Assembly (NCBI GenBank): GCA_030390025.1
Contig: CM059429.1
Span: 138,012,001 to 138,076,000 of the forward strand
Direction: 5' to 3'
DNA: 64,000 bases
DNA from: Squalus acanthias
Taxonomy: Eukaryota
This document shows positions 4,034 through 58,441 of the stretch, piece by piece. Position 1 is the first letter of the stretch. Every line of letters starts with the position of its first letter. The position numbers and the translations under genes were made by a program. Below the pieces are notes generated by a model. That model was not told the origin of the DNA. It was given only the letters and a program-made list of their open reading frames with translations, and did no database searches.

Positions 4034-7000
4034 GTGAGTAATCAGCTGATTTATTATTCTTTATTTGCTGTGTGGACTAGGTGCTGCTAGCTTCTCTGTT
4101 GCAAAGCGTCACACCTAGCTCTAGCTAAATCTATTCCAGAATTACTGGCTCTAAAAGCCGCACCTTATTCAGAATTGCTCAACCAGAACTGATTAACCTG
4201 CAGCAATTGTAAATCAGCAAGTAGTAGCAGCAGAAAAGTGAAAGCCTCCTGTCATAGTTATTGTTTTATGCTTCAGAAGGAAAGGCTTGCATTTATATTG
4301 CACTTTTCATGACCTCAGGACGTCCCAAAGCACTTTACATTGAATGAAGTACTTTTGAAGTGTAGTACCTGTTGTACTGTCGGAAATGCACATAGCAAGA
4401 TCCCATAAACAGCGATGTGATAATGACCAGGGAATCAGTTTCAGTGATGTTGATTGAGGCATAAATATGGGCCAGGACACCAGGGAGAACTCCCTTGCTC
4501 TGCTGCGAAATAGTGCCACGAGGTCCTTTACTTCCACCTGAGAGAGCGCAGACATCTCATCCACCTCCGACAGTGCAGCGCTCTCTCAGAGTGTCAAATC
4601 TCTGGAGAGGGTTTTGAACCCACAACCTTCTGACTCAGAGGGGAGAGTGCTACCAACTGAGCCATTGGGAGAGACTATTTGGACCATCTTGTTCCAGTCG
4701 AGGCACCTTTCACATTCCAGAGCAAGTTGTGTAATAGATAATAGTGACCGTGCGGCACAGTGGCTACACAATCAAACATGTGCAATTGTAAATAAAAACA
4801 GAAAATGCTGGAAAATACTCAGCAGGTCAGGCTGCATCTGTGGAGAGAGAAACAAAGTTAACATTTCAGGTCGATGACCTTTCATTAAAAGTAGGTCGAT
4901 GACCTTTTGTCAATAATGCAATTATAATCTTTGACCTGAGATTTACCTGAGTCTGTACCCTGGCACACTAGAAAATCAGGCAGGTTCCCTTATATTAAGT
5001 ACTCCAACCTGCCTATTTGTTCCCATATTCAAGATGCCCAGCTGATCCAGTGCACCTTGGTACCAGACCCAGGAAAACCTTCCCTGAAAACTGGAGCAAA
5101 ACCTTCTGAAGTAAAAGCACCTTTAGACACGCTTGTTGCTTACCGTCATGTCATACATATCCAGCATAGCTCTTACTTACTGATTACTTACGAATTCGGC
5201 CTCGTTGAACCGGCAGTGAACCTACCATTGCAATCATTAACTGTCTTGTTTGAATATTACAGCACATTGGGTCACAAAGTGGACAGCAGCTGTCTGTCTG
5301 AACCAAAACTGGAAAAAGTTCTTACATAACATGAATATAATGAATATATGGAGAGTGATTTCAAGGCTGTGATAAGATCTTGGGGGTACTAAAGTTTCCG
5401 GTTTGCAGTTTGAAATCATTTAAATCCATCGATGCTCTGCGCCAGGAGAGCGAAGTTATAAAATTTACCATGTTATTAGCAAAAATATGTTATTTATTGA
5501 AGTAAGTTACTGATTGATCAAAGCAATGGTTGAAAGTAATTTTAAGGTAGTTATCTACAGACACGTTCAAAGAACTGGATATATTGTAATCTGATCATAG
5601 GCAGAGACAGTATCCCCGTCTTTACGGTGAGGCGGGGAGGGAGCGGCAGAGGCCAAAGGTGGCTGAAGAACCCCGCAGAGGCCCAGCCAAATTTAACGGC
5701 AGGAACTTGTTTTTTTTTCTTCCATTTCCCGCCCGGCAGCCGGCCAAATTGACAGGCTGACCTGGGGGGTGTGGGGGTTGGCGTGATCACGGGAGGGGAG
5801 CAGGCTGCAGATTGGGGCTTGGGGGGTGGGGTGGGGTGGTGAGGACCACGATGGCAGCAGGCGTGTAAGCGTCGGGTTGGAGTCGTGTTTCATAAGAACA
5901 TAAGAAATAGGAGCAGGAGTTGGCCATTTGGCCCTTCAAGCCTGCTCCGCTATTCAGTTAGATCATGGCTGATCTTCTACCTCATCTCCACTTTCCTGCA
6001 CTATCCCCATATCCCTTGATTCCCTTAGTATCCAAAAATCTATCGATCTCTGTCTTGAATATAATCAAAGACTGAGCATCCACAGCCCTCTGAGGTAGAG
6101 AATTCCAAAGATTCACCACCCTCTGAGTGAAGAAATTTCTCCTCATCTCAGTCCTAAATGGCTGACCCCTTATTCTGAGACTGTGACCCCTGGTTCTAGA
6201 CTCCCCAGCCAGGGGAAACATCCTCCCTGCATCTACCCTGTCAAGCCCTGTAAGAATGTTGTATGTTTCAATGAGATCACCTCTCATTCTTCTAAACTCT
6301 AGAGAATATAGGCCTAATCTACTCAATCTCTCCTCATAGGACAATCCCCCCCATCCCAGGAACCAGTCTGGTGAACCTTCGTTGCACTCCCTCTGTGGCA
6401 AGCCCCAAACTGCCTCAATCTATCAGTCTCAGACACTGATAATCAGCAATTCAATTAATGCTGATTTACTGTGGCATCCCTGAACTGCCTTGATAACCTC
6501 TGTTATTCAAATTGCTAGGTACTTAATTGGCTGTGAAGCTCTTTGGGATGTCCTGAGGTTATGAAAGGTGCTATATAAATTCAAGTTCTTTATTTCTTCC
6601 TTTCTTTTACACATATGGATGCATTTCATTATAGCTCAGTTTGTAGCATTCTCTCCTCTGAATGATGGTTGTGGTTTCAAGCTCCAAATCTTCAACACGT
6701 AATCTAAACTGATACTTCAGTAAAGATGATGTGGAGATGCCGGTGTTGGACTGGGGTGGACAAATGTGAGAAGTCGCACAACACCAGGTTATAGTGCTGG
6801 TGTTGTGCAACTTCACCTGATGAAGGAGCAGCGCTCCGAAAGCTTGTGATTTCAAATAAAACTGTTGGACTATAACCTGGTGTTGTGCGACTTCTCACAT
6901 TCAGTAAAGAAAGAAGAGAGTGCTGCATTATTGGAGGTGCTGTCTATTGGCTGAGACATTAAACTGAGGATCTGTCTACCTGTTCTACTGGTTCAGATGG

Positions 7001-10000
7001 ACATCGAAGATCTCACGGCATTATTTAAAGAAAGTCAAGGGCTTGGGCTGGTTGTCCGTGTCCTCGTCAAGTCTTTGTGCCGTAAATGTCCTGATGGATA
7101 ATTTGTGACAGAAATGCAGCTAATGGAGGTTCCATTTTAAAAGTCTCCTCTTCTGTTCATAAAGTCAAATATTTTTCAGATTAATAGCCACAATGTAAGC
7201 TTTAGGGCAAAATTTTCCAAGGCCCTGTGCTACCAGTGGACCCTTGCATGCAGCAGCTTCCTTACTGGACAATTGCTGGTGCACTCCCCATGACTTTTTG
7301 TCCATAGAAAACAATGGATGGAAAATTGTAGGCAGTGCCCTTCTGATTTTTTGCCAAACCATTTACTGGGTGTGCAGCATCTTGGAGAACTTTCCCCTCA
7401 ATATCAACTTCTATTTGTACCTTTGTAACAAAATCTCCAGGTGTTCACAAGCAACAGGAGTGCAGCTACAACTGACACGACTTTGCCACTTTGTTTTAAC
7501 TTTAATTGTTAAATGTACTCGTCAAGCTAATGATTGACAGTATGAGGAGTAGAATCACTTTTAAATCAGATCAAATGCTGCGCCTCAGCTGTATTAAGAC
7601 TCTCATGATGATGATTTCACCCCTGCCTTGGATTAGCAGAACAATTGAGAGAAATGCTATTCTGTAAAATCAAGTCTGTGCGTGCCCGCCCAGGGAAGGC
7701 AATTTAGGTCTAATCAATTAAAAATTGAATTTAACTCCATAAAGTCTTTGCATTCAGTATTTATTGCCTCCATATATAGGATGCCTCTGTGTGTATAATA
7801 TTTATCTTGAAAGCTTGTTTCAAGTAGGGAAAGATAAGGTCTAAGTGTAACTATGAAGACATCTGGCACTACAGTACAATATCGCTTATGACTGTCTGAA
7901 TGGTGTTGTTAATGCCAGTTTTGTTTACAATCTACTCCTAAAGTAAGGATATACTTTTCCACCATTTTTCCCTTTGTATATTTCCATCTGTGCCTGGTCA
8001 CTATGAGCATTTCAAACTTTTCTGTGACTTCAACCAATAAGAGAGATAGTGACAAATGCTACTGCCACTTCCTTTCCTAACCTTAACTGTCAACTCGGCC
8101 AATCTGCGCTTTCAGTAAGCAATTCCTGTTTCAGCAGCCTCCTTCGTACATTGGGTAATGCGTTGTTTCGTTCTGATCTAGTCACAAACAGTCCCTTCAG
8201 GTTTTGTAAACTCTGCATCTACGAGCAGTGTTGTCTAGCCACAAATACATTAAGACTCTCGTATGATGATCTCACCCCCGCCTTGGATCAGCAGAACAAT
8301 TGAAAGAAATGCTATACTGTAAAATCAAGTGTAATTCGATTAAGTTCAAAATCGGGCGCGGGGATCGTGATGCGTGATCTGCCCGCGTCTGTTGAAAGGA
8401 GTTCATGCAGCACGTAAAATTCATGCTGTCTGCTACTTTACATGATCGCAGCTCACAGCTCAGCGCTGAACTCGTTGCTGACAGGCTGTGCACTCAGCAG
8501 GGGGCCGAAGTTCACGATGTTCGCACGAGCCTGCGCCTCTTAAAAACAGTCTGCACCTCTTAAAGGTGAGCTGCCTTCTGGTGATGAAATGTGTTAAAAG
8601 TGCTTCGGCACAAACAGAAATGGCTCAACAGGCCTGGGAAAGGGCACCCAGGTTCTTGGAGGCAGCACTCGAGCTTTGTGCATGGGGTGAACACTCGAAG
8701 AGAGGTCCTCTACCCATAGGTGACCAGGAGGCCCTCCAGAAAGAATAATGTGGGACCAGATCGCCAAGGCAGTCACTGCCAGCAGTGTCGCCCCCCAGGA
8801 CGTGGCTCCGGTGCCCAAAGAGGTTTCATGACCTCAAACGAGTGGTCAAGGTCAGTGAATGCATCTTCAAAAGCCATATCCCACCACCTGCACTATCCTC
8901 ACACACTGCACGACCCCGCCTCCCCCATCACTCACCTACCAACAATCTCTACCAAACACGAGCCACACCTCACATTCCTAGCTTCACCTCACCCCCTTGG
9001 AAGAGACGGTGCAGGCCATTCATGGCAGGGGCATGGCTGAGCCCGTGGCCAGCGGGAGGGGGGGCTGAAAAATACAAGATACCGGTATCCTCATATGTTA
9101 TCTTCCTTCTCACATCCCACTTCCCCCTCATCCCACAATCTCTTCTGATTTACAAGCTGCACATGGTGTAAGCATGCACCTCTTGCTCTCCTCTCTCCCC
9201 TCACCACAACCCTACCCTTATGCCTTCCTCATTTCAGACACCCAAGAAATCCAGATTGCCCAGCCAATGGTTGAACAAGAAGAGGGAGAGTGAAGAAGAA
9301 CAAACACTGTCACTTAATTTGACACTCCCAACCACCAGCTCCTCAAAGTCATCCTGTAAGGCCATCTGCAGTGTCCCCCACGGAAAGTCAGCAGCCTTCC
9401 ACCAGCCATTCTGCAGTCACTGGGGTAGCACTGGGCAGGAGCACGAGGACAGGCAAAGGCACACGCAAGACAGTCACTAAGGGAATGCACAAGGGTGACT
9501 AGTTGATTTTTTGATGTAATATTGGATGCATATATGGATAAAGTTGGATTGGAAAGTTTGCTTTGTGGTGGCTTTTATTTCAGCGTTGAAGCCAAGAGGA
9601 CGCTGTAATGGTCAGTAACAGAGGGAAGGTAAGGTGTGGGAGAAATGTTGAAAGGGGAATTGGGGTTGTGTTCACAAATATCCAGATGGATGGTTCAATC
9701 CCGGAAACCCCGGCCAGAAAGAGGCTGTCTGGGTTGCCTCCTTCCTTCTGCTTCCTCCTCCTCTTCTCCTCCCTCCTCTTCCTCCTGCTCCTCCCTCTGT
9801 GAGCAGCATGTCCCTTTTGCTGCCTCTGCTCAATTTCCATGTCATGTCATGTCATTCCAGGATTTTGACCCAGCGACGATGAAGGAACGGCGATATATTT
9901 CCAAGTCAGGATGGTGTGTAATTTGGAGGGGAATTTACAGGTGATGGTGTTCCCATGCACCTACTGCCCTTGTCCTTCTAGGTGGAAGAGGTCGTGGGTT

Positions 10001-19000: not shown

Positions 19001-22000
19001 CATCAAATACATTTTTTTTAAATTACATATTTAAAATGAATTAAAATGCCATTTAATTAAATATTTAAAACAAAAGTTTTATTTTTTGAAAAATAAATTT
19101 ACATGTTTTAAAGGGGCTAAAAATAAACTTACCTTATTGCACAGGTTTTTTAATGTATAAATGATTGAAAAAAATGTATTTTTATGTTTTTTTAAACTCT
19201 TACGCTGGTAAAAGCAGGCGTAAGAATTTCACGGGCATTCGCTGGGCAGAAGTTGGGCAAATAGCCCAACTCTCTGCCCGCGGAGGCCCTTTTCCCGGGG
19301 ATGTGTTGGATTTGTCAAGAAGATTCTTGACAGATCGCAAGTTCTGGGTTTTCGCGCATGCGCTTCACATGCGAAAACCCGGAACTTGCACGGCCCTTAC
19401 GGGCGCATACGCACCTCATACCGTAGGGGCCGCAAATTATGGGCCCATATGGCCTATTTCTTGTCATTAACACCATAATTAAGGTGAGACAGTAGGGTGT
19501 ATAGTATTGCTATGGAAAAGGGAGGCAGACTCAAAATGTAAATTCTCCCAAGAGAGCAGGGGCCATTAATTATATTCTCTGCCCAGCAAATTTAAAAATG
19601 AAAAAATATATATTTTGTGTTCAGCCACCCCAGAGGAAGCTGGCCTCAATTCACTGTTTTCCACCATCCCTCAGAGGCTGGATCCCTGATGCAGATGGAA
19701 ATGCACTGGGAATTTGCCCAAATTATTTAAATAAGGCTGACCCCAGAAAATCAGGGCTATGCATGGTCTAAGGGGACTGGTGGTAATCACTCCCCAGTGA
19801 CATTGTGGTGGGATGCCACCCAGCCAGAAAATTCTGCCTATTAGGTGTCCAAGAGAGGGAAAAAGATATTCAATTCAAATACAAGCATCTTCTGGGTATT
19901 GTTGGTAGATATTTTGTTTGAATAGCAGCCTTTTTGAGTTTAAGAGATACATATTTAAATTTACAAAAGCAAAATACTGTGGATGCTAGAAATCTGAAAT
20001 AAAAACAGGAAAATGCTGAAAATACTCAGCAGGTCAGGCAAATTTTGAAAAGTATTTCTCAGCCGGTTTTGTTCAAATTGGGTAATATGTCTGAAGGCAT
20101 CAGAAAGTGGTTGATTGGTCAGAGAGGCTCCATGGACAGTTTTAAGCAACCACATTGTAAAGATTAATAGTCGAGAACCTCAGTTAACATTGCACTTTAG
20201 AGCGGCAGATTTAAGTGTTTGTTATTTAATGTCTTCCAATTGATGGAATCCATGGTTCAATTGAACCAAGTCAAATTTTAGCTTTTGATTATTCAAATAC
20301 AAACAAAAAATGGCCATAAATAAGGATTTACATGTGTGCAGTTATATTGTGTGATCTTGTGGGGACCAATTACAGCCACCATAAACAGTTATTTTGAAGA
20401 CCCCCTCATTGGTGCGTTGACTTATATATTTGTATTATTTATATATGTTTAAATGTATTCTAAACTTTCCTATTCTTCCCTGCTCTCAGCTGAACTGCTC
20501 CTTTGGATGACAAGTATTGAATGGTTTGCTGTGACTCTGACTAATAGTGGTACTGACAGGAGATCATAAGAAACAATCATGTACTAGACAGGTTAATTAC
20601 AGTGAAAACGGTCTCAGATGTATAAACTGCAGCTCTTTTGTTGAAGTTTGAAACACTGACCTTTGACGAACGTCAGTATTATGTTAATGCACCGAGTGAA
20701 TCACTGCTATTAACCTTCAGCAGACTTCCACTGCTGATGTGATCAGTTTCATCCTCAGTGGTACTCTCTGGTTTACACTAAAGTGAGTGTATTAAAATTT
20801 AAAAGTAGCATTTATGCTCCAGGCTACACCATTTAAAGGCAAGTGTAATAAGTACACTTGTTGACTCGCTTTGGATAACTGCCAATACTGAGCTGGTGAC
20901 AGTCTCTGAATTTTGATAAGGAGAGATTACAGAAATTCACAATGCTTTAATTTTACATCCATTTGCTTCCATCCCTTTTTGATCCCTTAATCTGCCTCCA
21001 AGTTCCTTTCCCCCTCCCTAATCATAAGGGCATGCTGCTCTGTGCCCTCGGTATCTCTAGTCAAATAGGGATGAGCATTTGGATTCATTTAAATTTCGTA
21101 GTAGACTGGAACTATCTGAAATTTAACTGAGATTTTAAAAAGAAGGCAAGCAAGTATGTTGGGAGCACCTCTCTGGACCAGCAGGTAACTTGCACATACC
21201 AGGAACTGTCTCCAGCATTCCCTCCACTAAAGTAGATTCAGTATGGTGTGTTGCCGTTTATTAACAGAGGGTTGAGTTTAAGAACCGTGAGGTTATGCTG
21301 CAACTGTACAGGACCTTGGTGAGACCACATTTGGAATATTGTGTGCAGTTCTGGTCACCTCACTATAGGAAGGACGTGGAAGCATTGGAAAGAGTGCAAA
21401 GGAGATTTACCAGGATGCTGCCTGGTTTGGGGGGGAGGTCTTATGAGGAAAGATTGAGGGAGTTGGGGCTTTTCTCTTTAGAGCGGAGGAGGATGAGAGG
21501 CGACTTAGTAGAGGTTTATAAGATGATGAGGGGGATAGATAGAGTGGATGTTCAGAGACTATTTCCTCGGGTAGAGGCAGCTGTTACAAGGGGGCATAAC
21601 TAGAAGGTGCATGGGGGGAGATATAGAAGGGATGTCCGAGGTAGATTCTTTACTCAGAGAGTGGTTGGGGTGTGGAATGGACTGCCTGCTGTGATAGTGG
21701 AGTCGGACACTTTAGGAACTTTCAAGCGGTTATTGGATAAGCACATGGAGCACACCAGAGTGATAGGGAGTGGGATAGCTTGATCTTGGTCTCGGACAAT
21801 GCTCGGCACAACATCGAGGGCCGAAGGGCCTGTACTGTGCTGTACTGTTCTATGTTCTATGTATGCTGTAAGCCATATTTACATATAGTTTGCACTTGAC
21901 CCTGTTTTCTCCACACATCAAAGTTGGCATCAAAATGGTGGTCTACCACCAGACTAAAATTATGCCAAATTTGCTCACTTTGTTTTTGGCTAAACGCAAT

Positions 22001-28000: not shown

Positions 28001-31000
28001 AAAGTTTTAGAATTATCTAAACAGCCTCTTCTGTCTTCAGACCAGCTGCATATCTGCTTCTGCCTAGAGGGGAAACCATGGTGGCGGTGTTCAAATGGCC
28101 TTTGAATTGGTCAAAAGGGCACTGTTCTGGTCCAGTGAACCCAGACCATACGGTTTCTAGAATATGTGCTAAGGGAACTGACATCACAATACCTTGAACA
28201 ATTTTTGTCCCCTGTGGGAACACCTGTACTATGTCTTACACTGATCTGTATTGAATAGTCTCAGTGGAGTTGGCGATATCCATTAATTTCTCTTTTTAAT
28301 GCTTACAGAAAGCAGCTTTGAAGTTACCGCAATAACCCGGACACCAACCGTGAGATACTATGGTACATTTGAACTCCAGTGTTTCATTAAACCTTTATCC
28401 CTTACCCATGTGCCGGCATCTGTATCCTGGAAATTCCAACCAGCCCATTCTAATGACAGCTACCACCTTGTTACTTTCACCCATGACACTGCGATTGAGT
28501 GGGGGGACAAGGTGGAGAACTTCAAAGGAAAAATGATAGTAGTGAAAACGGCGTCCAATACTGTCCGGTTGAGTGTCTCCAGAGCCAGCAAACTGGAAGC
28601 TGGGAAATTTCTATGTACCGCAGAATTATGGAGAAGACATCATCCAAACCAATGGGTCATGAAAGCCAGAGCAACATCAAACATCCTGGAAGTGAAGGTT
28701 AGACCCCCAGGTAAGTTAACGGAAGGGGTGCTTTTAGAATTTACAGGATCAAAGGTGCATTAAAGTGGCACCCAGGCCATCGTGTGCAGTATATGAGATA
28801 TTAACCTGCCTTCTAAAAAAAAAAGATAGAAATTGAAAATGAAATAATGGCCCCAGTTGGTAAGTGCACTGTGCAGTATGGAAGCAAGCTATGCAGACCA
28901 TAAGGTCCCAATTCCAATTCCGAGTCTGTGCAGTAGGGGAGAAGGGTCTCAGTGGCCCTGGGATAGGGAGGGGGAAAAATCTGCCAGGGTATCTGCTTGT
29001 GATTGTTATCCAGTGAATCTACTGGAAACGTGTATGGACATCAGATGAAGATAGGATCAAGCTCAGCTGTGGTGTCCTCAACTGAAAAATAGCCTGCTAC
29101 CACTCATTGTCTAGGCTCACACATGAAGAGTGGTGCCTTCGGCATGGTACTGGAAAGCCACAGACATCTGTTGAGCCATATCCCACCAGGAGTCCGCACC
29201 TTTGTGAGAGAAGGGGAGAAAATTGAAGCAGAAGAAAGCAAAATATGAATCTGTGAAAAACAAAATAAATTAACTAACTATAAGTAATTACAATGAAATA
29301 GGAAGGTGAGCTATAAATAGATAACAAAACAAACAAGAGGCAATAAAAAGACTATTCCATCATTAGGACGAATCAATCTGTTGCAGTAAGTTGTGGTTGT
29401 TCACATGTAACTAACTATGAATAGGTGCTTGTGAAAATTAGGTTATTTGTATCTGTCGGAGATACTTTAATCCAAAATGTTATTTAAGGGGCTGTATTAT
29501 GTCATTAAGTCCACACTGTTCAGAGCTGCACAAATAGTATTTTTTACCTCTCACCACAATGTCAACATATTGCTAAAAATGCAGTTTTGATGCTTTTGGG
29601 GTGAAATTGAGTATTTTAAAATGTATTGGTGCTCTGTACATGTTCTGCCACTTTACACAGCCCTGATCCTGACATTACAACAAAATGTAGTTAAAGTTGG
29701 CCAGGTCATATTAATGTTGAAATATCTGCAATTTGTGTTTTGGAGCTGCTCTACCTTCATCCGTACCTTCAGAAAATAAAATTGTCATCAATAGAGTAAT
29801 GGGAGAATTAATCAAGAGTAAGGTAACCTGTTTTCTCAACTGATGGATGTATAGAAGTAAGACAGATATAGGGAAGAATTGGATAAAAATTAAGGCGTAA
29901 ATTTACAATAAAAACATCACGCTTGCAAAGGAGGTGAAAGTATGCTGCAAGATCACTAGTGTCATGGGCTCAACTGTGTAACACACTCATCAGTTCTGGT
30001 AGGTCACTCTCCTAAATCATAGATGAGCATATACAACTAAATAGTTAGATATTGACTGATCTGTGTGATGCTTCACCTTGAACCTAAATACTGTAGTACA
30101 AAGAAATACAATGAAATTATTCTGATATACTGTCTTTTCTACTTATGTAGCAAGTCTCTTGAAGCTCACGAAGCAAGTTAAAACCGTACAGAAAAGGATC
30201 AATGACATCACTGAACTTGAATGTAGAATTTCAGCTCAAACTCAAAATGATTCTCAATTCGCAGTCACGTGGCTCTTTACTAAGACACAGGGACCAAATG
30301 TGAAAGGGGAAAATCTTCTGAGCACTGATCGCAATAATATTGTCCAGTACTATGGAGAATTGCTTACCGATACGAAGAAGAAGATGAAATTCCAGGATGA
30401 AAAGACCTCTAATGATATGTACAAGCTGATTATACAGAAAACTGATGTGAGTGACAGCGGAAGTTACTATTGTCATGTAATGGAGTGGCTTTTGGATCCC
30501 AACAACATCTGGTATAAAGTGGGGGAGAATACGTCGGCAATAACAACTGTTCAAGTGCATACGGCAGGTAAACAAGTTTCCTAAATATCTCTCAAAAATT
30601 GCAGGACTGGAACAAATGACAATTTGTTTATTTATTACTATGAGCGGTTTCTTTTCCTGCAACTAAGAGTGATTTGCACTGGAGTGCAAATAATGTGTGG
30701 AACTAGCAGTAGCACAGGCACAATGACCTCTGTGGAGAAAGAGATTGTGATGTGGAGATGCCGGCGTTGGACTGGGGTGGACAAAAATGAGAAGTCGCAC
30801 AACACCAGGTTATAGTCCAACAGATTTATTTAAAATTACAAGCTTTCGGAGCTGTCGCCCCTTCCTCAGGTAGAGTAGCTGTGAGAGAATCTCCCAGAAT
30901 TCACAATATAAACACAGAAAAAATGTATTCAAATCTTTCCCTACATCAAAGACACACTAAGAGCACAGCCAAGACAATGAGATGTGTCCCAGGGGGTCCA

Positions 31001-34000
31001 ACGTGTCAAAACACCTGCTGGCTGCATATCCTCTGCAGTTGAGTTTGGTTCTTGTGTTAGTTTTTTTTTAAAAGGAAAAGCTGGAAAGACCGGCCATGAT
31101 GTCAAGTCATGTTCTGTATCGTGACATGAACCCGATATCGCGATTGAGGCCATCCTCATGAGTGCGGAACTTGGCTATCAGTTTCTGCTCTATGATTTTG
31201 CGCTGTCGTGTATCCCGAAGGCCGCCTTGGAGAACGCTTACCCGCAGATCCGAGGCTGAATGCCCCTGACTGCTGAAGTGTTCCCCGACTGGGAGGCAAC
31301 CCTCCTGCCTGGCGATTGTTGCGCGGTGTCCGTTCATACGTTGTCTCAGTGTCTGCATGGTCTCGCCGATGTACCATGCTCTGGGGCATCCTTTACTGCA
31401 ACGTATCAGGTAGCCAACGTTGGCCGAGTCACATGACTATGTACCATGTACCTGGTGGGTAGTGTCCTCACGTGTGATGATGGTATCTGTGTCCATGATC
31501 TGGCATGTCTTGCAGAGGTTGCCGTGGCAGGGTTGTGTGGTGTCGTGGTTGCTGTTCTCCTGAAAGATGGGTAATCTGCTGCGAACGATGGTACTTTTGA
31601 GGTTAGGCGGCTGCTTGAAGGCGAGTAGTGGAGGCGTGGGGATGGCCTTAGCAAGGTGTTCGTCGTCATCGATGACATGTTGAAGGCTGCGAAGAACATG
31701 GCGTAGTTTTTCCGCTCCGGGGAAGTACTGGACGACGTAGGGTACTCTGTTGGTTGTGTCCCGTGTTCGTCTTCTGAGGAGGTCTATGCGGTTTTTCGCT
31801 GTGGCCCGTCGGAACTGTCGATCGACGAGTCGAGCGTCATATCCCGTTCTTACGAGGGCGTCTTTCAGTGTCCGTAGGTGTCCATCGCGTTCCTCCTCGT
31901 CTGAGCAGATCCTGTGTATTCGCAGGGCTTGTCCTTAGGGGATGGCTTCTTTAACGTGGTTAGGGTGGAAGCTGGAGAAGTGGAGCATCGTGAGGTTGTC
32001 TGTGGGCTTGCAGTAGAGTGAAGTGCTGAGGCGTCCGTCTTTGATGGAGATTCGTGTGTCCAAGAATGAAACCGATTCTGAGGAGTAGTCCATGGTGAGT
32101 TTGATGGTGGGATGGAACCTGTTGATGCTATCGTGTAGTCCTTTCAGTGATCCTTCGCCGTGGGTCCAAAGGAAGAAGATGTCGTCGATGTATCTGGTGT
32201 ACAGCGTTGGTTGGAGGTCCTGTGCAGCGAAGAAGTCTTGCTCGAACTTGTGCATGAAGATGTTGGCGTATTGGGTGCGAATTTGGTCCCCATGGCTGTT
32301 CCGTGTGTTTGGGTAAAAAAGTGGTTGTCGAAGGTGAAGACATTGTGGTCAAGGATGAAGCGGATGAGTTGTAGGATGGCGTCCGGAGATTGGCTGTTGT
32401 TGGTGTTGAGTACTGAGGCTGTCGCAGCGATGCCGTCATTGTGGGGGATATTGGTGTAGAGTGCCGATACGTCCATCGTGACGAGGAGTGTTCCTGGTTC
32501 AACTGGTCCATGGGTGCTGAGTTTCTGCAAGAAGTCTGTAGTGTCACGACAGAAGCTGGGGGTTCCCTGTACGATGGGTTTCAGGATGCCCTCGACGTAC
32601 CCAGAGAGGTTCTCACACAGGGTTCCGTTGCCTGATACGATAGGACGTCCGGGTGTGTTGGCTTTGTGTATCTTTGGGAGGCAGTAAAAGTCTCCTACGC
32701 GGGGAGTACGTGGGATGAGAGCACGTAGGATGTTTTGAAGGTCTGGATCGAAGGTCTTGATCAGTCTATTGAGTTGGCGGGTGTGTTCTTTGGTCGGATC
32801 TGCGGGTAGCTGTCTGTAGTGTTCCTGGTTGTCCAGTTGTCGGTATGCTTCTTTGCAATAGTCCATTCTGTTCTGTATGACGATGGCTCCTCCTTTGTCC
32901 GCTGGTTTGATGACGATGTTGCGGTTGGTCTTGAGAGCGTGGATGGCGTTGCGTTGTGCTCGGGTGACATTCTGGACTGTCTTGTGAGTACGGCTGATGA
33001 ATCTGGCGTTGATGCATTTCCTGACAGCTTGAGCATACATGTCAAGCTTAGGGCAGCGACCCTCCGGAGGGGTCAATTTGACTCTTTCTTCCTCGGTTGT
33101 AGCACTGCGGTTCCCTCTGTCTGCTGTTCCGGATCATTGATTGTCTCATTAGGAATGTTGCTGACATCTTGGGATTTGTGGTAGTATTCCCAGATCCTCA
33201 TTCTCCTGATGAATTCCTCTGTGTCCGCCGCGAGACCGATGGGGTCCATTTTGGTGGTGGGGCAGAACTTGAGCCCTAGGGCGAGAACTTCGATTTCGTC
33301 TGGTTGAAGGGTGTGGTCCGACAGGTTGACGATGGACTTCCCTGTGGTTGCAACCGTGGTACCGGGGGAGGCTTGGTTGCAGCTGGTGGTTACGCCGAGT
33401 TTCTCAAGCTTCCTGTTCTTGATGCGCATGTAGGCAGCGTAGTTCCGTTGCCTCGTCTGTTTGGCGGTGTCTCGTAGCTGGTCTGCTGTGTCCTGAGCAC
33501 AGGCTGAGAGCATGGACTCTATCTTGGTTTCGAGGTTGCGACGTCTGCTGTAGAGCTGGTGTACGAGATGGTTGAGGAGTGTGCGAGAGGTACGACGGCA
33601 AAGTCTCTCAGCGTAGTCTGTGTTGTATGTCGACTTGAGTGGGTTCGTGATCTGTAGTCCTTTCGGAATCTTGTCTGCTTTCTTGCATCTCTGCAGGTAC
33701 TTGATGTCTGTGTCAATATGCGCGATCTTCTTGGCGATTCTCTCCACTTTGAGCCGGCAGTTTGCGGTGTCAAGAGAGGTCATGATGTGGAGATGCCGGC
33801 GTTGGACTGGGGTGGACAAAAATGAGAAGTCGCACAGCACCAGGTTATAGTCCAACAGATTTATTTAAAATTACAAGGTTTCGGAGCTGTCGCCCCTTCC
33901 TCAGGTAGAGTAGCATAGCTTCTAAAGGAGCCATTTTTTGACTTTGCGCTCCTGACTGGAGCTGCTTGGCAGTGGCCTATGCAGTGCATGATTTTTAGGC

Positions 34001-46000: not shown

Positions 46001-49000
46001 CCAGGGGAAACATCTTCCCTGCATCTGGTCTGTCTAGCCCTGTCAGAATTTTATACGTTTCAATGAGATCCCCTCTCATTCTTCTAAACTTTAGTGAATA
46101 CAGGCCTAGTCGACCCAATCTCTCCTCATCCCAGGAATCAGTCTTGTGAACCTTCGCTGCACTCCCTCTATGGCAAGTATGTCCTTTCTTAGGTAAGGAG
46201 ACCAAAACTGCACACAGTACTCCAGGTGTGGTCTCACCAAGGCCCTGTATAACTGTAGTAAGACATCCTTGCTCCTGTAGTAAGAACTTCCTCATATCAG
46301 TCCTAAATTCAACTTTAACTAGTTCCTGTGGTCCTTGTCTTATTTACGCAATTTAATTTAATGTAATTTTCCAGATTGACTTTTTCTACACCATTTCTAA
46401 TCTTATACGATTTGTAGTGTTATGTACATGGGTAGGGCCAACGCCAAACATGTATACATCAGGCAGGGTTTAAGGCTGTTGAGCAGGAGGAAGATCTAGG
46501 TGTTATTGTACATAAATCTCTGAAGGGCAGTAGATGGAGGTCATGGCTACCATGACAGTAAGGGACAGGCTTGATGGGCCAGCTGGTCTTTTCCTGCCCT
46601 TTGATTTTGTATGTCTCTACCTCTCAGGCTGGCTTCCATGGAGACAGAAAAGCCCATGTTTCTCCAGTCTTTCTCATAATCAGACCTCCAAGAACAGGGA
46701 TCAGCCTTGTGGCAGTTTGAACTACCTCCATTGTCTCCCTTATTCCTCAGTCATTAAAATTGGATGTACTACTGAAAGAGCATTGTACAGTTTGATCATG
46801 ACTTCCTCTTTCTTGTATTCTACTGTGTTTGTGATTATAGTCCTGTTGACTTATTGATTGCTGCTCTGCATTGGTTGGAACTGTTAAGTGTTGAGCCTAT
46901 TAAGACTCCTTGGTCTTTTTCAACTTCATCTGTTTATTGCAGAAACTGCATTGAGCTGCTCAGCAACTTCTTACTGGAGCTTGCTGAGGAGAGTGCCCCT
47001 CAAATCCAGAAATGGGACACCTCCCTCCACATCACCTTCAGGGTTCTCTAAGAAAAAGGAACTGTTTTCCCTTTCCCCTTGCTGATTCTTGACTCATTTT
47101 ACCACAACTGTCAGCAAGACCACATGAAATTGGAAAACGGGAAGTGCAGGAACAGCTTTAAGTAGCTGCCCCAGCACTTTTCCTCCTCTGTGCAGGAAGT
47201 TAACCTCTCCGTTCCCAGCGTGCAACTTGAACAAAATCATGATTTGGATGTGAAAAAGTATTATATAAACGGAACACATACTGTGGATGCTGGAAATCTG
47301 AAATAACAACAGAATATGCTGGAAACACTCAGCAGGTCAGGCAGCATCGAGGAGAGAGAAACAGAGTCAACGATTCGGGTCGAGGACGTTCTGACGAAGG
47401 GTCCTCGACCCAAAACGTAACTCTGTTTCTCTCTCCTCGATGCTGCCTGACCTCCTATATAAATGGAAGTTCTTTCATCCTCACAGTATGAAGGACTGCA
47501 ATATGGAATATGTGAGCAACCTTAATATTTAACGATAGATTAAAGTGCAGAGCATGTTGCCTAACATGAATGTTTAATAGTGAACTAGAATATAGAATGT
47601 ATTATATAACTTGAATACTGAACCAAAGTACAGAACTTTTTGTATAAATTGAATGTTTAATGGTGAACTAGAATACAAAATGTGCTGTATAATCAAAATA
47701 CTTATTTGGGAATTGGAAACCGAATGTTTCCCATTTAGGACGAGGAAGATCTTGATGTGTGTCTTGTAACTTCAACATTTAAAAATTGGCAAGTCTCCTT
47801 CACTTTTATAATAAATTCTGTATTCTACACTTTCCCATTGAGTAGCCTGTAGTCTTGATATAACTCAAGTTATATTCTGATTGGTTTTGCTGTACAATCG
47901 AAAATCTTGGAATTGCACCTCAAAGTTAACCAGTTAGAAAAAGTTGCTTGAAGGTCCAACGTCTACTCCAGATTGTATGGTGCAGCAAGTGATTAAGAAG
48001 GCCAATGGAATGTTGGCTTTCATTGCTAGGGGGATAGAATATAAAAATAGGGAGGTATTGCTTCAGTTGTACAAGGTATTGATGAGACCGCACCTGGAAT
48101 ACTGCATACAGTTTTGGTGTCCATACTTAAGAAAAGACATACTTGCTCTCGAGTCAGTACAAAGAAGGTTCACTCGGTTAATCCCGGCGATGAGGGGATG
48201 GACATATGAGGAGAGGTTGGGTAGATTGGGACTCTACTCATTGGAGTTCAGAAGAATGAGAGGCGATCTTATTGAAACATATAAGATTGTGAAGGGGTTG
48301 GATCGGGTGGATGCGGGGAGGATATTCCCGATAATGGGTGAAACTAGAACTAGGGGGCATAGTCTTAGAATAAGGGGCTGCTCTTTCAAAACTGAGATGA
48401 GGAGGAACTATTTCACTCAGAGGATGGTAGGTCCATGGAATATGCTGCCCCAAAAAGCTGTAGAAGCTACATCATTACATAAATTTAAAACAGAAATAGA
48501 CAGTTTCCTAGAAGTAAAGGGAATTAAGGGTTACGGGGAGCGGGCAGGAATTTGGACACGAGTCTAGGTTCGGATCGGTCATGGCCCTGTGGGTAGCGTA
48601 GCGGGCCCAGGGGCCGTGTAGCCTGATCCTGCTCCTATTTCGTGTGTCCAATTCTGTTAGATTCAGGAGATGGTTCTGTGATAGTAGATTGGCGGTTAGG
48701 ATCAGATCAGCCATGATCTTATTGAATGGCGGAGCAGGCTCGAGGGGCCAATTGGCCTACTCCTGCTCCAATTTCTTATGTTCTTATGTGATTACGTTTA
48801 CATTGTTTCAAAGAACTTTTATCATTTCTAACTTTTTTTGTCTTTTTTTCCTAGTTGCTACCCTACACTCGAAGGCCTGTGCATCACCGTCTCTCTTCTA
48901 CTTCATATTTATCTACCCGTTTATAATCTTCCTAGCTCTTGTCATTGTTGCACTGTATTTTCACAAGAGGCCAAAAAAACCACAGAAATCTGCTAATGAA

Positions 49001-49054: not shown

Positions 49055-49302
49055 GAAGCAAATGTAATATAACATTTTGTATTTCATTATTTTTGCAACT
49101 CTCTATTGTTACTATAGGAACTGTGTCATAAATAGCAGGAAAATAGCACCTGTGGTTAAGGGAAAGTTCACACAGGTGCCTAACCAAAAGAGATATTGAA
49201 GCAAAAAATGCAATCTGAGATCCTTCAATCATCATGCACATTGGTTATCTTTTTTTTGGAAAATTAGAAATGGAAACCCTGGCCTAACAAGACATTTGTA
49301 AA

Positions 49303-49376
49303 ATAACAACAGAAAACGCTGGAAAAACTCAACAGGCCAGGCAGCATCCGTGGAGAGAGAAACAGAGTTAACGTTT
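49303..49376 (-). mobile_element. Family B pLTR micro-insertion in the presumed 3' UTR
   Basis: 15-bp direct repeat CAAGACATTTGTAAA at 49288-49302 and 49377-49391. Confidence 0.85.
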
Positions 49377-51191
49377 CAAGACATTTGTAAATATGTCTTC
49401 ACTGGTTACACAGCTTCTCTCCCAGTTCAAACAACTCAATTGTTTTTTTTAGCTTCCTTCATTGCCAACATTTAATATTTGTGAACCTTCTTCCTCTTGT
49501 ACCTTTCAGTTCCTAAATTCAAACCTAATATATACAACGAACTTTTCACAAATTATTTCACTTTTCAATCCTTCAATCCTTTCTGTGTATTGAAATCGTG
49601 CAGCCATTGCCCCAAATCCAGAGCACAAGGGAGCCAAAAATAACAAAATAATCTAAGAGTATTGGGTTGTAAAACTCTAATGGGCTGAGCATTTGGATAG
49701 CAATATAGTGTTATAATAAAATTTGTGCTCAGAGTTAGACTTGTCAAAAAAGCTGAACTAAGTTGCTAACTCAGTAGAGAACAAGCTGGTGGATGTTATT
49801 CTGTATCTACACAGTGCATGGTCAGACCACACCATGTGTACTGTGGCCAGTTTTGTTACCGGGATACAAGGCAATCATTCAAACCCTGGAGGTGGTGCAG
49901 AGAAGAACCACAAAGCTGATCCCTAGTGTCAGACTATATTAACATTATTGTTCAGCCTTGAAAGGAGATGGCTGAAAGGGGACCTCACTGAAGCATGTAA
50001 GACAGTAAAAAGTATGGAAAAGGTACAATCAAAGCACCTTATCAAGCCCAGGCACTGGGGAGAAGAAAAATAAATTCAAACTGGTGAATGACAAATTTAG
50101 GACTGAACACAGGAAGTTCATCATGCAAAGAGTGGTCAGCATTTGGAATGAAATCTTGCATAGAGTGATGTTAGTTAAATGCTGGGGCAGGGAGGTCTAG
50201 GTGGATGATTGGAGATGGGAAAAATAGCCTTCACCATTTGTATTTATCTTGTGACTTAGACAGATAGATGATTATGTTGGCAGATAAAAGAGAGGCAATT
50301 TTTAAAATTTGTTTCTGAAAGATCACATCAGGACATGACAGCAGAGACAGGATTTTTTTCAGTGTGCATTGCGCTGAAGGCCTTTACATGTGTTGTGGTG
50401 AAGGGCGGGCTGCTCAGTGACTCCTGGGAATCGTAGTCCAGTTGTGTGGCAAAATTTCTGATACCTGAGATAAGCTTTGTTAAGACATTATTACGTGTGA
50501 CATTCAGGGAGTATCTGTGTGCAGCTGGGGTCAGGATGGTTATGCGCTCTGATGGATTTTATCTAGCCATGCATGAGGAAGCAGGTATTTTTAAAATAAA
50601 TTTCATTTTAGGCGTATATAGTGGAGTGAAACCAGCAGGGCCATTCAAAGGACTTTGACTTTTTTTTCAAGGTTTTGATTGGTTATATATTTGGTTATAT
50701 TGATTCATTGCTTTTTAATGGATGGATTTTTTTTTCTAAAGAGATAGTAACTTTTATTTTAGAGATATATAAGGCTGATTTTCCAGCCCACTCCTTTTCA
50801 ACATGCAAAGAGCGAGAAATAGGGAAGGGAGGTATTTTGCCAGATTTTAATGAAAGCAAATGATATCTTGTGTAATTTCCATCCATTCCATGGGCATAAA
50901 GGGAAGCTGCATGTGCAGGGAAATTCTCGGAGGTTTTTTTTTGAAGAAGTTTTTTATTTTCATTGTTTTGGTAGCTTTTTAGTGTTTTTACCTGCTTTTT
51001 TGGCATTAGAACACATAGGGAATATTCATGTAGATACACAAACAGTCAAATATTGTGTGCAGACTCACCAGACACTTGTCTATAGTTGAACCACTTTGAA
51101 GAGTTCAGTGGAACAAGAAGATTGAAAAAGAAGGGAGATAGGAAAAGTGCTCTTAGAAACAAACTTACGCTGCAGCTCAGGAAAAGAAAGT

Positions 51192-51650: not shown

Positions 51651-52081
51651 GGAGCAGCAAGGGTACAGAATCCCCTGCCAGTTACCATATCAATGTAAAA
51701 TTAATGATGGGGAATTGCTTTTAAAGCACTCCAAATGCAGTATTTTGTGGCTAAGGTAATACAAGATGAAAGAAGGCATGCCAAGGAGATCAGCTGGCAT
51801 CGGAGCTCAACTGTCTAAACCCACTATCGTGTCACCGACCGTATGTGTACATGGCAATGACCGAGGACCACTGCCTGTACAGGCTCCAGGTCGGCCTCTC
51901 AATGGCTCAGGCCGCTTGTCAATAGTTAAAATCGGCCCTCATATGTCAGCAAAAGTCAGTGCCTTCAGAAGAGATAGGGAGAAAAAATAATTACTGCCTC
52001 AGGGAAAACTATGTTCTGTTAAATGATCTCCAGATATTGCTATTTTTTCTGGTTTTATATGACTGTAAAATTTGATTGATC

Positions 52082-52106
52082 TATATATATATATATATAT
52101 ATATAT
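52082..52106. repeat. (TA)n microsatellite
   Basis: Seen directly. Confidence 0.95.
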
Positions 52107-52235
52107 TGAAACTGCCTTACTCTAGCAAGTTGAATTTTAATGGAAAGCATTCCATTTTGTATAGCTTCTAATTTAAAATTTACAAACATGCTTTGCGTTT
52201 TCTAAGAAAAAATGCTGAAAATTGTATCTTACAAA

Positions 52236-52241
52236 AATAAA
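52236..52241 (+). terminator. Candidate polyadenylation signal
   Basis: AATAAA followed by ATTAAA and a GT-rich stretch at the end of an AT-rich unique region ~3.2 kb after the stop; no transcript evidence. Confidence 0.3.
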
Positions 52242-53949: not shown

Positions 53950-54980
53950 AGGGCACTGATGGTCGATGCTTCTCCTGCTCTTCCTCCGCTTCACGCTCTT
54001 CCTCCTCCTCCTGCTCCACTTCCTGTTGCCCAGGTGATGATAAGGGTTAGTTCCTCATTATCGCAAAGTTTGTAGCATATAGCAGACAGCCACAAATCTG
54101 CATACCTGCTCAGGCGTGTACTGCAAAGCTCCTCCAGAACGGTCAAGGCAGTGGAAGCATTGCTTGTGCACGCCGATTGTTCATTAACAATTCTAGTGAC
54201 AGCATGGTTCTCATTGTAGACCAGCTCTGCAACTGTGCCTGGGTTCCTGACAGGAGTCATGAGCCATGTTCACAGGGTATATCTCTCATCCCCCAATAGC
54301 CAGCTTGTAGCTTGACGTCCTGATTGGAATAAAGGCGGCACAGAGGACTGGTGCAGGATGAAAGAGTCATGACTACTGCCAGGATACCAGGCAAGGCCTG
54401 CATGATGCGCTGCCCGATGTCGCAAGCCAGCTGTGTGTTGAGGAAGTGAAATTACTTTTGATTGATAAAGATGCCAGACTGGTGATGGGGATCACGCAAG
54501 GCAATATGGGTGCAGTCTATGTCACCTTGCACCCTGGGGAAGCCTCCCATGCAGCCAAAGCCTAGTGCGCTCCCGTCCTGCTTTTCTCTATGGGGAACAA
54601 GATGTAGGTGTTCCTGCTGGCATTGAGAGCCTCGGTGACCTCCCTGATACAACGGTGGACTGCGAACTGCTGATGTTACCTGCTGCAGCCTGAAAGGAGC
54701 CCATGGCATAAAAGTTACGGGCCACGGTAACTTTGACAACTGCAGGCAGTGCTGTCCATGCCCTGGTGTGAGGCTCAAGTTGTGGTTGCAGCAGGTGACA
54801 TCGCTCGATGACAGCTTCCTTTGTGAAGCGAAGGCACCTCAGACGTTGCTTAGCAGTGAAGTTCATGTCGAAGTGCTCCCTGAATACCAGCTGTCGATAT
54901 GGCCTTCTGTGCAGTGCCCCCTCCTCCTCCAGCCCCGAAGGCTTCCCTACTAGACCACCTATGGCTGCAGACAAACCGTA
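53950..54980 (-). pseudogene. Harbinger (HARBI1-like) DDE transposase remnant
   Basis: LRFTKEAV..LQPQLEP..TALPAVVKVTVARNFYAMGSFQ; GFPRVQGDIDCTHIAL; MTPVRNP..YNENHAVTR; several frameshifts. Confidence 0.85.
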
Positions 54981-55784
54981 TCTAAGGCAGCCAAAAACAG
55001 TGTAACACCAGCATAATCTTCTTCTCAGCAGTCAAACTTAACTTTCCTGTGTCAGAAAACAGGGCAAAAACACCCAGAAGTTAACCAGCAGCTTGAAATG
55101 ACAAACCAGCAACTAACATATAAGTTTCTTCATAACTATAACCTTTCATTCCTAGTATCATTCCAGTGGATCTTCATTATACCCATCACATGACTATAAT
55201 ATCCTTTCTATAATGGGGTGCCCAGGACTGCATAAAATTTTCCAATTGTGACCAAAACCAATGTCTTGTACAAATTCAACATCATTTCCTTGCTTCTAGG
55301 TTAAATGCCCTATTTATAATACCTAGAATCCATTTGACTTTTCATGACCTTTCTTACCTGCACTTTTATAGTTCTGCCCCAAAACCCTATGTTCCTCCAT
55401 TATGTTATTTAGGGTATACTTCCTTTCATTGTTTGCCCCCCAAAATGTATTATTACGCATTTCACTGGATTGAACTACACGTCACCTATCTCCCACTCCT
55501 CTAACCTGTCTATGTCTTCCTGGAATCTCCAACATTCTTCCTCACAGTTTGTCTCACTCTCTAATTTGGTATCATCAGGAAAGTAGAAGGTTCCCTAAGG
55601 CCAAGTCATTTATATAAATGTAAAACAGAAGATGGCCCAAAACAGATCTCTGGGACACACCACTAACCACATCCTGGCAATCCAAAAAACATTAATTTAC
55701 CCCTACTAATTGGTTTATGTCCCCTAACCATCACTCTATCCATGTGGTTACATTCCCATTCATACCACATGCCTTCATTACACA

Positions 55785-56680
55785 GGATTACATAGGATAT
55801 ACGGCGCAGAAACAAGCCATTCGGCCCAACCCGTCCAAGCCGGCGTTTATGCTCCACTCGCGCCTCCTCCCGTCTTTCCTCATCTAACTCTATCAGCATA
55901 ACCCGCTATTCCCTTCTCCCTCATATGCTTATCCAGCCTCCCCTTAAACACATCTACACTATTCACTTCAACTACTCCCTGTGGTAGCGAGTTTCGCATT
56001 CTCACCACACTCTGGGTAAAGAAGTTCCTTCTGAATTCCCTATTTGATTTTTTGGTGACTATATTGATGGCCTCCAGTTTTGCTCTTCCTCAAAAGTGGA
56101 CAAAAGTGAGAAGTCGCACAACACCAGGTTATAGTCCAACAGTTTTATTTGAAATCACAAGCTTTCGGAGCTACTGCTCCTTCGTCAGGTGAAGTGGAAA
56201 CATTCTCTCTGTATCTACTCTATCAAAACCTTTCATTATCTTAAAGACCCCTATTGGGTCACCCCTCAGCCTTTTCTTTTCAAGAGAAAAGAGATCCAGC
56301 CTATTCATCCTTTCCTGATAGGTATACCCTCGCATTTCTGGTATCATCCTTGTAAATCTTTTTTGCATCCTTGCAAACCTTTTTTGCACCCTCTCTAGTG
56401 CCTCTATATCCTTTATATAATATGGAGACCAGAATTGTACACCAATTATGGTCTAACCAAGGTTCGATACAAGTTCAGCATAACTTGTCTACTTTTCAAT
56501 TCAATCCCTCTAGAAATAAACCCTGGTTTGCTTTTTTTATGACCTTGTTAACCTGTGTCGCTACTTTCAGTGATTTGTGTATTTGTACTCTGAGATCCCT
56601 TTGCTCTTCTACCCAACTTAGAATCGTATTTTCCAAGTAATATGTGACCTCCCCACTTTTCTTACCAAAATGTAATACGA
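55785..56680 (-). mobile_element. CR1 LINE 3' fragment (same subfamily as 16316-17186) within older CR1 debris 55130-57360
   Basis: [24 protein letters not shown]. Confidence 0.82.
56101..56191 (-). mobile_element. Family A pLTR micro-insertion with intact hammerhead motif (56155-56192)
   Basis: UCAC-CUGACGA-A-GGAGC-agua-GCUCC-GAAA-GC-UU-GUGA; TSD AAGTGGA at 56094-56100 and 56192-56198. Confidence 0.82.
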
Positions 56681-57419
56681 ATCATCTCTAATGAATCTCT
56701 TATGTGGTCCGTATTAAATGTCATCTGAAAATCCATATATATAAAACATCCATTGCAATCCCTATCTGTAATTTCCTCAAAGAAAATCAATTAAACTAGT
56801 CACAATTGAAGATAACCTTTCATTCCTAATAGCATTCTAGTGGATATTCGCCGTACCCTTTCTGTGGCTCTAATATCCTTCCTATAGCTTGGTGCCAAAA
56901 ACTGCATGCAATATTCCAAATGTCTTGTACAAATTCAACATCACATTTTCCTTTTATATGCAATGCTTCTATGCTCTTCACAAATCCATGCTGACTGTCC
57001 CTGGTTAACCCCTGCCTTCCTAAGTGTTGACTAATTTCATGCCATATTATGGGCTCTAAACAAGTAATTTTCTGACTTTAAGTTCCCAGCCGGGGGGAGG
57101 GTCCACCACCAAAAGCACACATCAGAAATTCAGGTGCGTGCTGCGTATGATTTTCTCACGATTAATGGTTGGAAAATTATGCACAGTATGTGACTGAATT
57201 TCAGATATGCATGGCCAGTGTATGAGGTTCCCTGCCAGGAGCATGAAGTCACAAAATCACACCTTTGAAGTTTAGTCACAACTGAGGTAAGACTTATTAG
57301 CCTATAATTTCCTAGGTGATACTTTACTCCCTTTTTTCAACGCAATTTCATTTTACAGTACTTTCAATACTCAGCACCCATTCAAAGGGATTTACTTCAG
57401 ATTTCCCGAATTCACTTTA

Positions 57420-57629
57420 AGAACATAAGAAATAGGAGCAAGGGTAGGCCATTTGGCCCTTTGAGCCTGTTCCGCCATTCAATAAGATCATGGCTGATCT
57501 TCTACCTCATCTCCACTTTCCTGCACTATCCCCATATCCCTCGATTCCCTTAATATCCAAAAATCTATCGATCTCTGTCTTGAATATACTCAATGACTGA
57601 GCCTCCACAGCCCTCTGGGGTAGAGAATT
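57420..57629 (-). mobile_element. CR1 3' tail
   Basis: Near-identical to 5893-6103. Confidence 0.85.
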
Positions 57630-58248
57630 GTAACTTGACATTGCTTTTTATTTATTCTCGCAAAGTAGGCGTCACTGGCAAGGCCGGCATTTATTGTCCA
57701 TCCCGTTCCACAATCCCAAACCAAGGATAGCAGGTGAGGGATAAACCGAATAGAACATAGAAAATAACTGCTGGCATGATGAAAATGTTAATAGTCTTTG
57801 GGGGTGATTCTAACCCTACCTGTCCGATGGAAACCTTCAAACAGTTGGGCAGTTAAAATCGCCCAGGTTCACTTAACCATCCTGGAGATGCTGGGAGTTG
57901 ACCGCTTGGAATTTTAACCTGCTCTCTTGAGCAGGCGGCAAGGACACCGGACTGCAATTTTAACTCAGCGGCCTTAGGAAAGCCACAGAGTTTTAGACAT
58001 TCCTTTCTCATCTGTCTTTCTCAGCTGCTAATAAAACGGGTCAGTAATTAGCAAACATTTAGTGCTAGACTTCATTTCAGTTTGTCTCACACATTTCTAT
58101 TTTCATATTCTGATATTCACACTGCTCAACTTTACTTAAACCACAGTTGCACTTTGCACTACCTTGTGGCCACTTGTATGAAAGTCTGGCCATTATGGGA
58201 GAAAGACATTTGTGGTTTCTCCTAACCACCTCTCTCCTCCTTCTTTAA

Positions 58249-58441
58249 AAATGAGAAGTCGCACAACACCAGGTTATAGTCCAACAGTTTTATTTAAAAT
58301 TACGAGCTTTCGGAGCTCTGCTCCTTCTTCAGGTACAGGTACTAAGTGAGGGAATACAAATCGATTACACAGTATATATATACAGAGAGCAATGTGTCTG
58401 CAGAGATACAATCTGTTAGGGAGGCATTACATCAAAGACTT
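58249..58441 (-). mobile_element. Family A PLE 3'-end insertion with intact hammerhead motif (58301-58335)
   Basis: UAC-CUGAAGA-A-GGAGC-aga-GCUCC-GAAA-GC-UC-GUA; TSD CTTCTTTAA at 58240-58248 and 58442-58450; host is an L2-like tail. Confidence 0.82.

Follow-up and report, generated by a model that had tools for sequence, protein, structure and literature searches.

Five short motifs in a 64,000-nucleotide stretch of the Squalus acanthias genome (GenBank assembly GCA_030390025.1, contig CM059429.1, positions 138,012,001 to 138,076,000; hereafter the window) had been predicted to be hammerhead ribozymes that covary as functional ribozymes should. They are minimal type I hammerhead motifs in the pseudo-long terminal repeats (pLTRs) of Penelope-like elements (PLEs): sequence comparisons across the genome suggest that source elements were selected to keep a ribozyme predicted to be active as a dimer, and that insertion probably draws on two templates. 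As the original prediction recognized, the class itself is known, having been described in 2014 by Cervera and De la Pena for metazoan PLE pLTRs (PMC4209133); the newer part is that single insertions often carry two different ribozyme versions.

All five motifs lie at the predicted positions (C3 at 6817 on the plus strand and at 30869, 33904, 56188 and 58332 on the minus strand), and all five have the core CUGANGA, GAAA and UH in type I order. A loose core pattern finds such motifs barely above chance, with 13 matches in the window against a shuffle mean of 5.8, a count reached in 1 of 100 shuffles. A full structural descriptor gave 83 distinct matches in 646 kb comprising the window and further loci, many of them picked for the motif, and none in the reversed, shuffled or complemented 646 kb. 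Rfam covariance models returned no hammerhead among the 8 matches to the window up to E 5. Because 30837 and 33872 belong to one element, the five motifs represent only four insertions, with four haplotypes, and five copies are therefore insufficient to establish the covariation claimed for them, although pairing is indeed kept genome-wide. All five are likely inert passengers.

The predicted anatomy can be refined using two genome-wide samples: a parsed set of 267 copies, obtained from 372 arms of which the remainder were truncated or too altered, and a set of 42 haplotypes seen at least twice, from which loci picked for a C-A pair (see below) were left out. Helix II keeps its pairing in every one of the 42 haplotypes around a variable loop (AGC, GACA, AGUA and AGA in the window), and H17 is U or C both in the window and in the parsed copies, as had been proposed. 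The palindrome AGCU, described as the whole of helix III, is present in four window copies and replaced by ACCU at 33872; G occupies the changed position in 266 of the 267 parsed copies. Helix I does keep its pairing between the CAC/GUG and UAC/GUA forms, but the two forms also differ in its length, with 4 bp in CAC/GUG copies and 3 bp in the UAC/GUA copies of the window. The position described as free, N7, takes all four bases, but U7 is partly a product of decay, since it sits at a CpG.

The strict ribozyme pattern has 50,781 matches in the 3.71-Gb genome and a 23-nt anchor downstream of the ribozyme has 99,768, i.e., about 100,000 copies, with no match in either reversed control. The copies are young: 39 arm pairs of about 70 columns hold 26 private differences. 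Among 61,692 copies genome-wide, the helix I pair 2.3:1.3 is C-G in 38,183, U-A in 21,098, U-G in 2,013 and C-A in 398 (0.65%), whereas independent columns would give about 13,400 C-A. The 217 copies from loci not picked for C-A contain 118 C-G, 83 U-A, 16 U-G and no C-A; the U-G form is largely one subfamily. The parsed copies have 17 polymorphic columns; helices I and II, G10.1-C11.1 and the extra base after A9 are all present, and pairing survives each of the seven shared changes that fall within helix II or helix I pairs 1-3. Helix II is fully paired in 42 of 42 haplotypes, its paired fraction and covariation score are each reached by none of 500 shuffles, and slid controls are 24-47% paired.

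The core points in the same direction. N7 varies among four bases and H17 between U and C in the parsed copies, while 12 of the 13 conserved positions (the core plus G10.1 and C11.1) lack any shared variant, U4 being the exception. Position 7 and G8 form a CpG, C7pG8: in one fixed subfamily context, U7 occurs 1,573 times and G8A 409 times (a 3.8-fold difference), with G12A at 523, against a neutral ACG:TCG ratio of 1.5 in 59 fragments of the element's open reading frame (ORF). The harmless change thus spread and the catalytic ones did not. Selection likely acted on source elements while individual copies decay. The original prediction of several subfamilies selected for self-cleavage is partly borne out, in that the source lineages kept pairing and core.

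Several observations weigh against this reading. The pairing evidence comprises few independent events: two-sided change affects two base pairs only among the 42 haplotypes, each reached through a U-G step, the count of two-sided pairs is matched by 76 of 500 shuffles, and relatedness of the copies inflates the other covariation measures. The unpaired column 1.8 tracks 2.3 nearly as closely as 1.3 does (mutual information 0.54 vs. 0.67), and 11 of the 42 haplotypes have lost the fourth pair of helix I. The U7 excess could stem from one amplified source. Invariance alone proves little, since the 30 nt that follow the ribozyme vary no more than the core does, even among copies picked by the ribozyme. 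Folding adds no support: the dimer predicted to be active has no advantage in stability over a pair of monomer folds and lies 5-9 kcal/mol above the best dimer fold, and pLTR folding z-scores are near 0 and uninformative. A dimer fold without gain over monomers is in line with the low activity (PMC4209133) and protein dependence (PMC11167929) described for related ribozymes. Finally, a lineage with the core change U4C has been amplified to 3,817 copies; this change reduces in vitro activity but is compatible with viroid infectivity (PMC3088659). Within this lineage (L061:2687-2737 and loci L213-L234; loops TTTA, TGTA, AGTA, AGTAA and AACA) a helix II pair passed from C-G through U-G to U-A, and the lineage constitutes a natural test of a weakened core.

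Many copies are arranged head to head. Exactly one tail is present in 122 of 128 such pairs, and a target duplication of 12-16 nt, with the mode at 12-13, flanks 101 of 128, whereas among 300 mismatched controls a single one reaches even 11 nt; head-to-head pairs are single insertion events. The 3' ends cluster 41-48 and 81-86 nt past the anchor. Among 42 typed pairs not picked as mixed, six join different loop II types (the U4C search supplied one of these); 54 further pairs, with one arm truncated, were left out of the typing. Genome-wide, short pairs with the same loop number 3,356 (AGC/AGC), 598 (AGCA/AGCA) and 326 (GACA/GACA), and mixed ones 529 (AGC/AGCA) and 22 (AGC/GACA, about 13 events), which is 38% and 3.6%, respectively, of the mixing expected from random pairing. 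The first 30 AGC/AGCA loci have a duplication of at least 10 nt in 22 and a single tail in 29. Mixed pairs represent many different haplotype combinations, and in the long pairs L092, L124 and L254 the arms differ in the untranslated region (UTR), the ribozyme and the 3' side.

Mixing also occurs within arms. An AGC loop sits on a GACA-type 3' side in 87 copies, against 4,565 of the native form. Among the first 30 of these chimeric arms, 21 lie in short inverted insertions, as compared to 5 of 30 native copies (p 6e-5); all 21 typed partners have the native non-AGC loop, and N7 differs as well in 7 of the 21. Tailed arms carry the foreign helix in 18 cases and untailed arms in 4 (p 0.004), with a weaker bias, 17 vs. 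12, in the AGC/AGCA set. This enrichment, the partner loops and the tailed-arm bias point to an origin of most of these chimeras at or close to the time of insertion, with a second template as donor. A small chimeric source exists too, since L358 and L359, two of the 30, form a single longer pair whose arms both have AGC. Cutting and religation by the ribozyme was rejected as an origin for the chimeras: among copies with the 3' type of the partner, 25 have C17, several of them plain point variants, and 87 have U17, which places the switch inside the ribozyme mostly 5' of H17 and the cut site. One-base slippage was rejected as the main cause of AGC/AGCA pairs: in 100 loci among the matches listed, inspected by eye, 30 of 33 AGCA arms with G10.3 have a partner with A10.3, a pair of linked differences. 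On balance, the mixed arms favor two RNA templates per insertion, somewhat more likely than not on two separate molecules; that the two are paired through the ribozyme is less likely than not.

The templates themselves appear, from where the arms begin, to be mostly uncleaved. A survey covered 105 arms, selected either at random or through the downstream anchor. Just 2 of them have their start at the predicted cut site or beyond it, which adds to the evidence against a cleaving ribozyme; starts inside the ribozyme number 18, those in the 15 nt preceding C3 number 27 (with 7 exactly at -7) and those further upstream 25, and 33 arms extend at least 200 nt. Anchors lacking both G12 and A15.1 number only 2,054 genome-wide. 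Apparent 5' starts fall at the cut site 128 times, one base later 36 times and one base earlier 47 times, at detection odds that differ between these positions. Among 100 cut-site starts inspected by eye from the matches listed, 31 are attributable to helix I microhomology, 15 to GT overlap, 13 to one-base matches and 4 to insertions, with 37 unexplained, which scales to about 47 vs. about 29 (p 0.025). A genomic footprint of cleavage was accordingly rejected as too weak, microhomology between the two strands of helix I accounting for most of the excess. A splice acceptor upstream of helix I, present in one subfamily only, was likewise dropped. At two head-to-head junctions (L040:1380-1495 and L081:3969-4073) the 5' strand of helix I is reiterated, as if the reverse transcriptase (RT) had realigned at the template end.

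The proposed pathway would begin with the endonuclease (EN) cutting both target strands about 12 bp apart. Each cut end would prime reverse transcription near a pLTR end, one with a tail and one without, producing two cDNAs from two pLTR copies, usually alike and often from different source elements; most of these would end within the ribozyme or a little 5' of it, and they would then be joined head to head. Since the template is mostly uncleaved, ribozyme cleavage would act at another step, e.g., in trimming or clearing transcripts outside insertion. The ribozyme is predicted to cleave only as a dimer paired through AGCU, probably helped by an element protein. More speculatively, the palindromic hammerheads might pair two transcripts in a two-RNA particle, by analogy to retroviral dimer signals; a protein dimer would prime one RNA per end of the 12-bp staggered cut, and the RT would switch templates inside the ribozyme. 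Self-priming, proposed by Arkhipova et al. for inverted insertions (PMC3846280), is hard to fit to these data, as two different arm versions would not readily result from one arm copying the other.

A competitor to the two-RNA origin, less likely than not, holds that mixed arms arise without two RNA molecules, either from a tandem source transcript with two different pLTRs or by gene conversion after insertion, favored by palindrome breakage. Partial tandems are the usual active form of these elements (PMC8557442, PMC3846280), arms are mixed less often than random pairing would give, all 12 independent AGC/GACA events have one 3' sequence type common to the two arms, some foreign patches span little more than helix II, and mixing is commoner in short palindromic insertions. 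The diversity of haplotype combinations argues against it, as do the long pairs that differ throughout and the preference of the foreign helix for the tailed arm, to which later conversion would be blind (this preference being weaker for AGC/AGCA).

Other explanations concern the ribozyme rather than the arms. The hammerhead fold may have been kept as a structural signal, for RNA pairing or protein binding, with cleavage weak or incidental. The amplified U4C lineage, the scarcity of starts at or after the cut site with an excess there that is mostly microhomology, and the encounter of two ribozyme copies during insertion, evident from mixed arms, would all fit; ribozyme mutants, moreover, left insertion in vitro unimpaired and no RNA reads ended at the site (PMC11167929). 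This is nonetheless unlikely, given that G8, G12 and H17, the last never G as a shared variant, obey catalytic rules beyond those of the fold, and that the ribozyme of an Anolis PLE does cleave with protein present (PMC11167929). Descent alone, in which chance amplified a few master elements and left the motif as a relic, could draw on the small number of independent changes, the linkage with unpaired columns and a two-sided pair count within the range of shuffles. It is very improbable when set against the seven shared helix changes that all keep pairing (about 0.008 by coin toss, by the authors' estimate), the U-G pair that makes up a subfamily whereas C-A remains at 0.65%, the several loop types that occur with both helix I types, and a second family, described below, with other helices and another palindrome around the same core. 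Selection on source elements for a ribozyme predicted to be active as a dimer remains the preferred account.

Min-HHR (minimal hammerhead) families full of covariations have been reported in fish, coelacanth, frog and reptiles (PMC4209133). The dogfish copies share their core, short helix I, extra base after A9, G10.1-C11.1 and palindromic 15.2-16.2, as well as the arrangement of one motif per pLTR, many solo copies and opposite-strand pairs; unlike the Schistosoma motifs, whose helix II has 7-8 bp, they have a helix II of 5 bp. Strict matches exceed 60,000 here, against about 4,000 in coelacanth and 9,000 in Xenopus, counts obtained by differing search methods (PMC4209133). Cartilaginous fish appear neither in the portion of that study covered nor in 2 of its supplement files searched, and no shark report of PLE hammerheads was found among the papers listed, judged by title and the start of the abstract, most subscription journals, Repbase and Dfam lying outside this coverage. 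With the same limit, no mixed arms or two templates were found for Penelope insertions. The Poseidon element of Anolis, PAc (Frangieh et al., 2024; PMC11167929), likewise has two adjacent RT start sites giving the tail, cuts and extends both strands, and uses uncleaved RNA as template. In PAc the ORF starts inside the ribozyme, whereas in the dogfish element the cut site precedes the ORF start by about 90 nt; as a further difference, the dogfish element has a CX4CX2C linker, and mixed arms are not described for PAc in the parts of that account available. Inverted pLTR-plus-tail insertions described earlier similarly have head-to-head arms, a tail on one end and a target duplication, of 8-10 bp in rotifers as compared to 12-13 bp here (Arkhipova et al., 2013, PMC3846280; Craig et al., 2021, PMC8557442). 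Non-LTR retrozymes carry type I hammerheads related to pLTRs (PMC7229834; bioRxiv 10.64898/2026.07.22.740005) and form non-coding tandem arrays, unlike the copies described here, which are dispersed ends of a coding element; the retrozyme preprint, in the portion seen, covers one chondrichthyan genome (bioRxiv 10.64898/2026.07.22.740005). No non-coding tandem array of hammerhead units of this type was found in the window, and the parent element has an ORF.

That parent is represented in the window by a decayed full-length element with direct pLTRs 96.4% identical over 140 bp (Table 1). A hammerhead lies in both pLTRs around the RT ORF in this element and at locus L099, where a relative has an unbroken 892-aa ORF (Pfam RVT_1, E 2.3e-8); L099:3320-8295 is a tandem of two near-identical elements, one of them with this ORF. 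The window ORF is broken by frameshifts near 33075 and 32272 and stops near 31936 and 31438. Its C-terminal region contains residues that, by eye, resemble the GIY-YIG endonuclease motif; Pfam gave no GIY-YIG match. Both ORFs have the CX4CX2C linker between RT and EN, and a CX2-5CxxC linker marks the Neptune and Nematis clades (PMC8557442); the family likely belongs to Neptune. In predicted folds of the minus strand at 30745-30830, the 9 nt after the anchor start can pair with the tail, with z-scores near 0. The element is antisense in one intron of a host gene with at least 5 immunoglobulin V-set exons (13385-36845, plus strand). This gene may be EWI/IGSF3-like.

The second hammerhead family has 33,570 strict matches genome-wide, with helix I GUU/AAC, the palindrome ACGU, and A-U or G-U in place of G-C at 10.1-11.1. 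An inverted pair of this family forms a hairpin at 47331-47456 and explains a weak Rfam mir-14 match. Two period-24 tandem arrays flank a 500-N gap at 1762-3442 and adjoin an inverted fragment of this family's ORF end. In a further subfamily (L310 among others), A at 2.2 is replaced by G, giving a G-U pair in helix I.

Table 1. Hammerhead copies and associated PLE features in the window (EN stands for endonuclease, ORF for open reading frame, pLTR for pseudo-long terminal repeat and RT for reverse transcriptase).
Feature	Position	Strand	Details
Head-to-head (inverted) insertion	6716..6910	.	6813 hammerhead is part of one arm
Target duplication of this insertion	6716-6726 and 6900-6910		11 bp
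Tailed, truncated arm of this insertion	6726-6795	-	
Untailed arm of this insertion	about 6810-6899	+	
Minimal type I hammerhead	6813..6849	+	4-bp helix I, U7, U17, loop AGC; cleavage predicted between 6845 and 6846
Decayed full-length PLE with direct pLTRs	30745..33914	-	3.2 kb
3' pLTR with tail	30745..30879	-	
Hammerhead of 3' pLTR	30837..30872	-	Helix I 3 bp, G7, helix II with G-U pair, loop GACA, U17
Broken single ORF	31107..33783	-	RT, CX4CX2C linker, C-terminal GIY-YIG-like region
5' pLTR	33781..33914	-	Starts 10 nt before C3; ends at ORF start codon (33783-33781)
Hammerhead of 5' pLTR	33872..33907	-	G7, loop GACA; helix III palindrome broken (ACCU)
Solo 5'-truncated copy within older repeat	56096..56195	-	
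Hammerhead of solo copy	56155-56192	-	C7, loop AGUA, U17
3'-end fragment without tail	58247..58422	-	
Hammerhead of 3'-end fragment	58301-58335	-	A7, loop AGA, C17
Second hammerhead family	1038-1202, 4784-4885, 19962-20041, 47278-47456, 49301-49378, 62544-62667		

The value of the dogfish family lies in its scale: tens of thousands of young, sequence-marked insertions provide a readout of the Penelope cycle, in which templates appear mostly uncleaved and hundreds of single insertions carry two ribozyme versions. A two-RNA particle, if true, would explain head-to-head insertions, mosaic subfamilies and the retention of a poorly cleaving ribozyme; the insertions open the two-RNA model to a direct test, using marked RNAs and the in vitro system already published.

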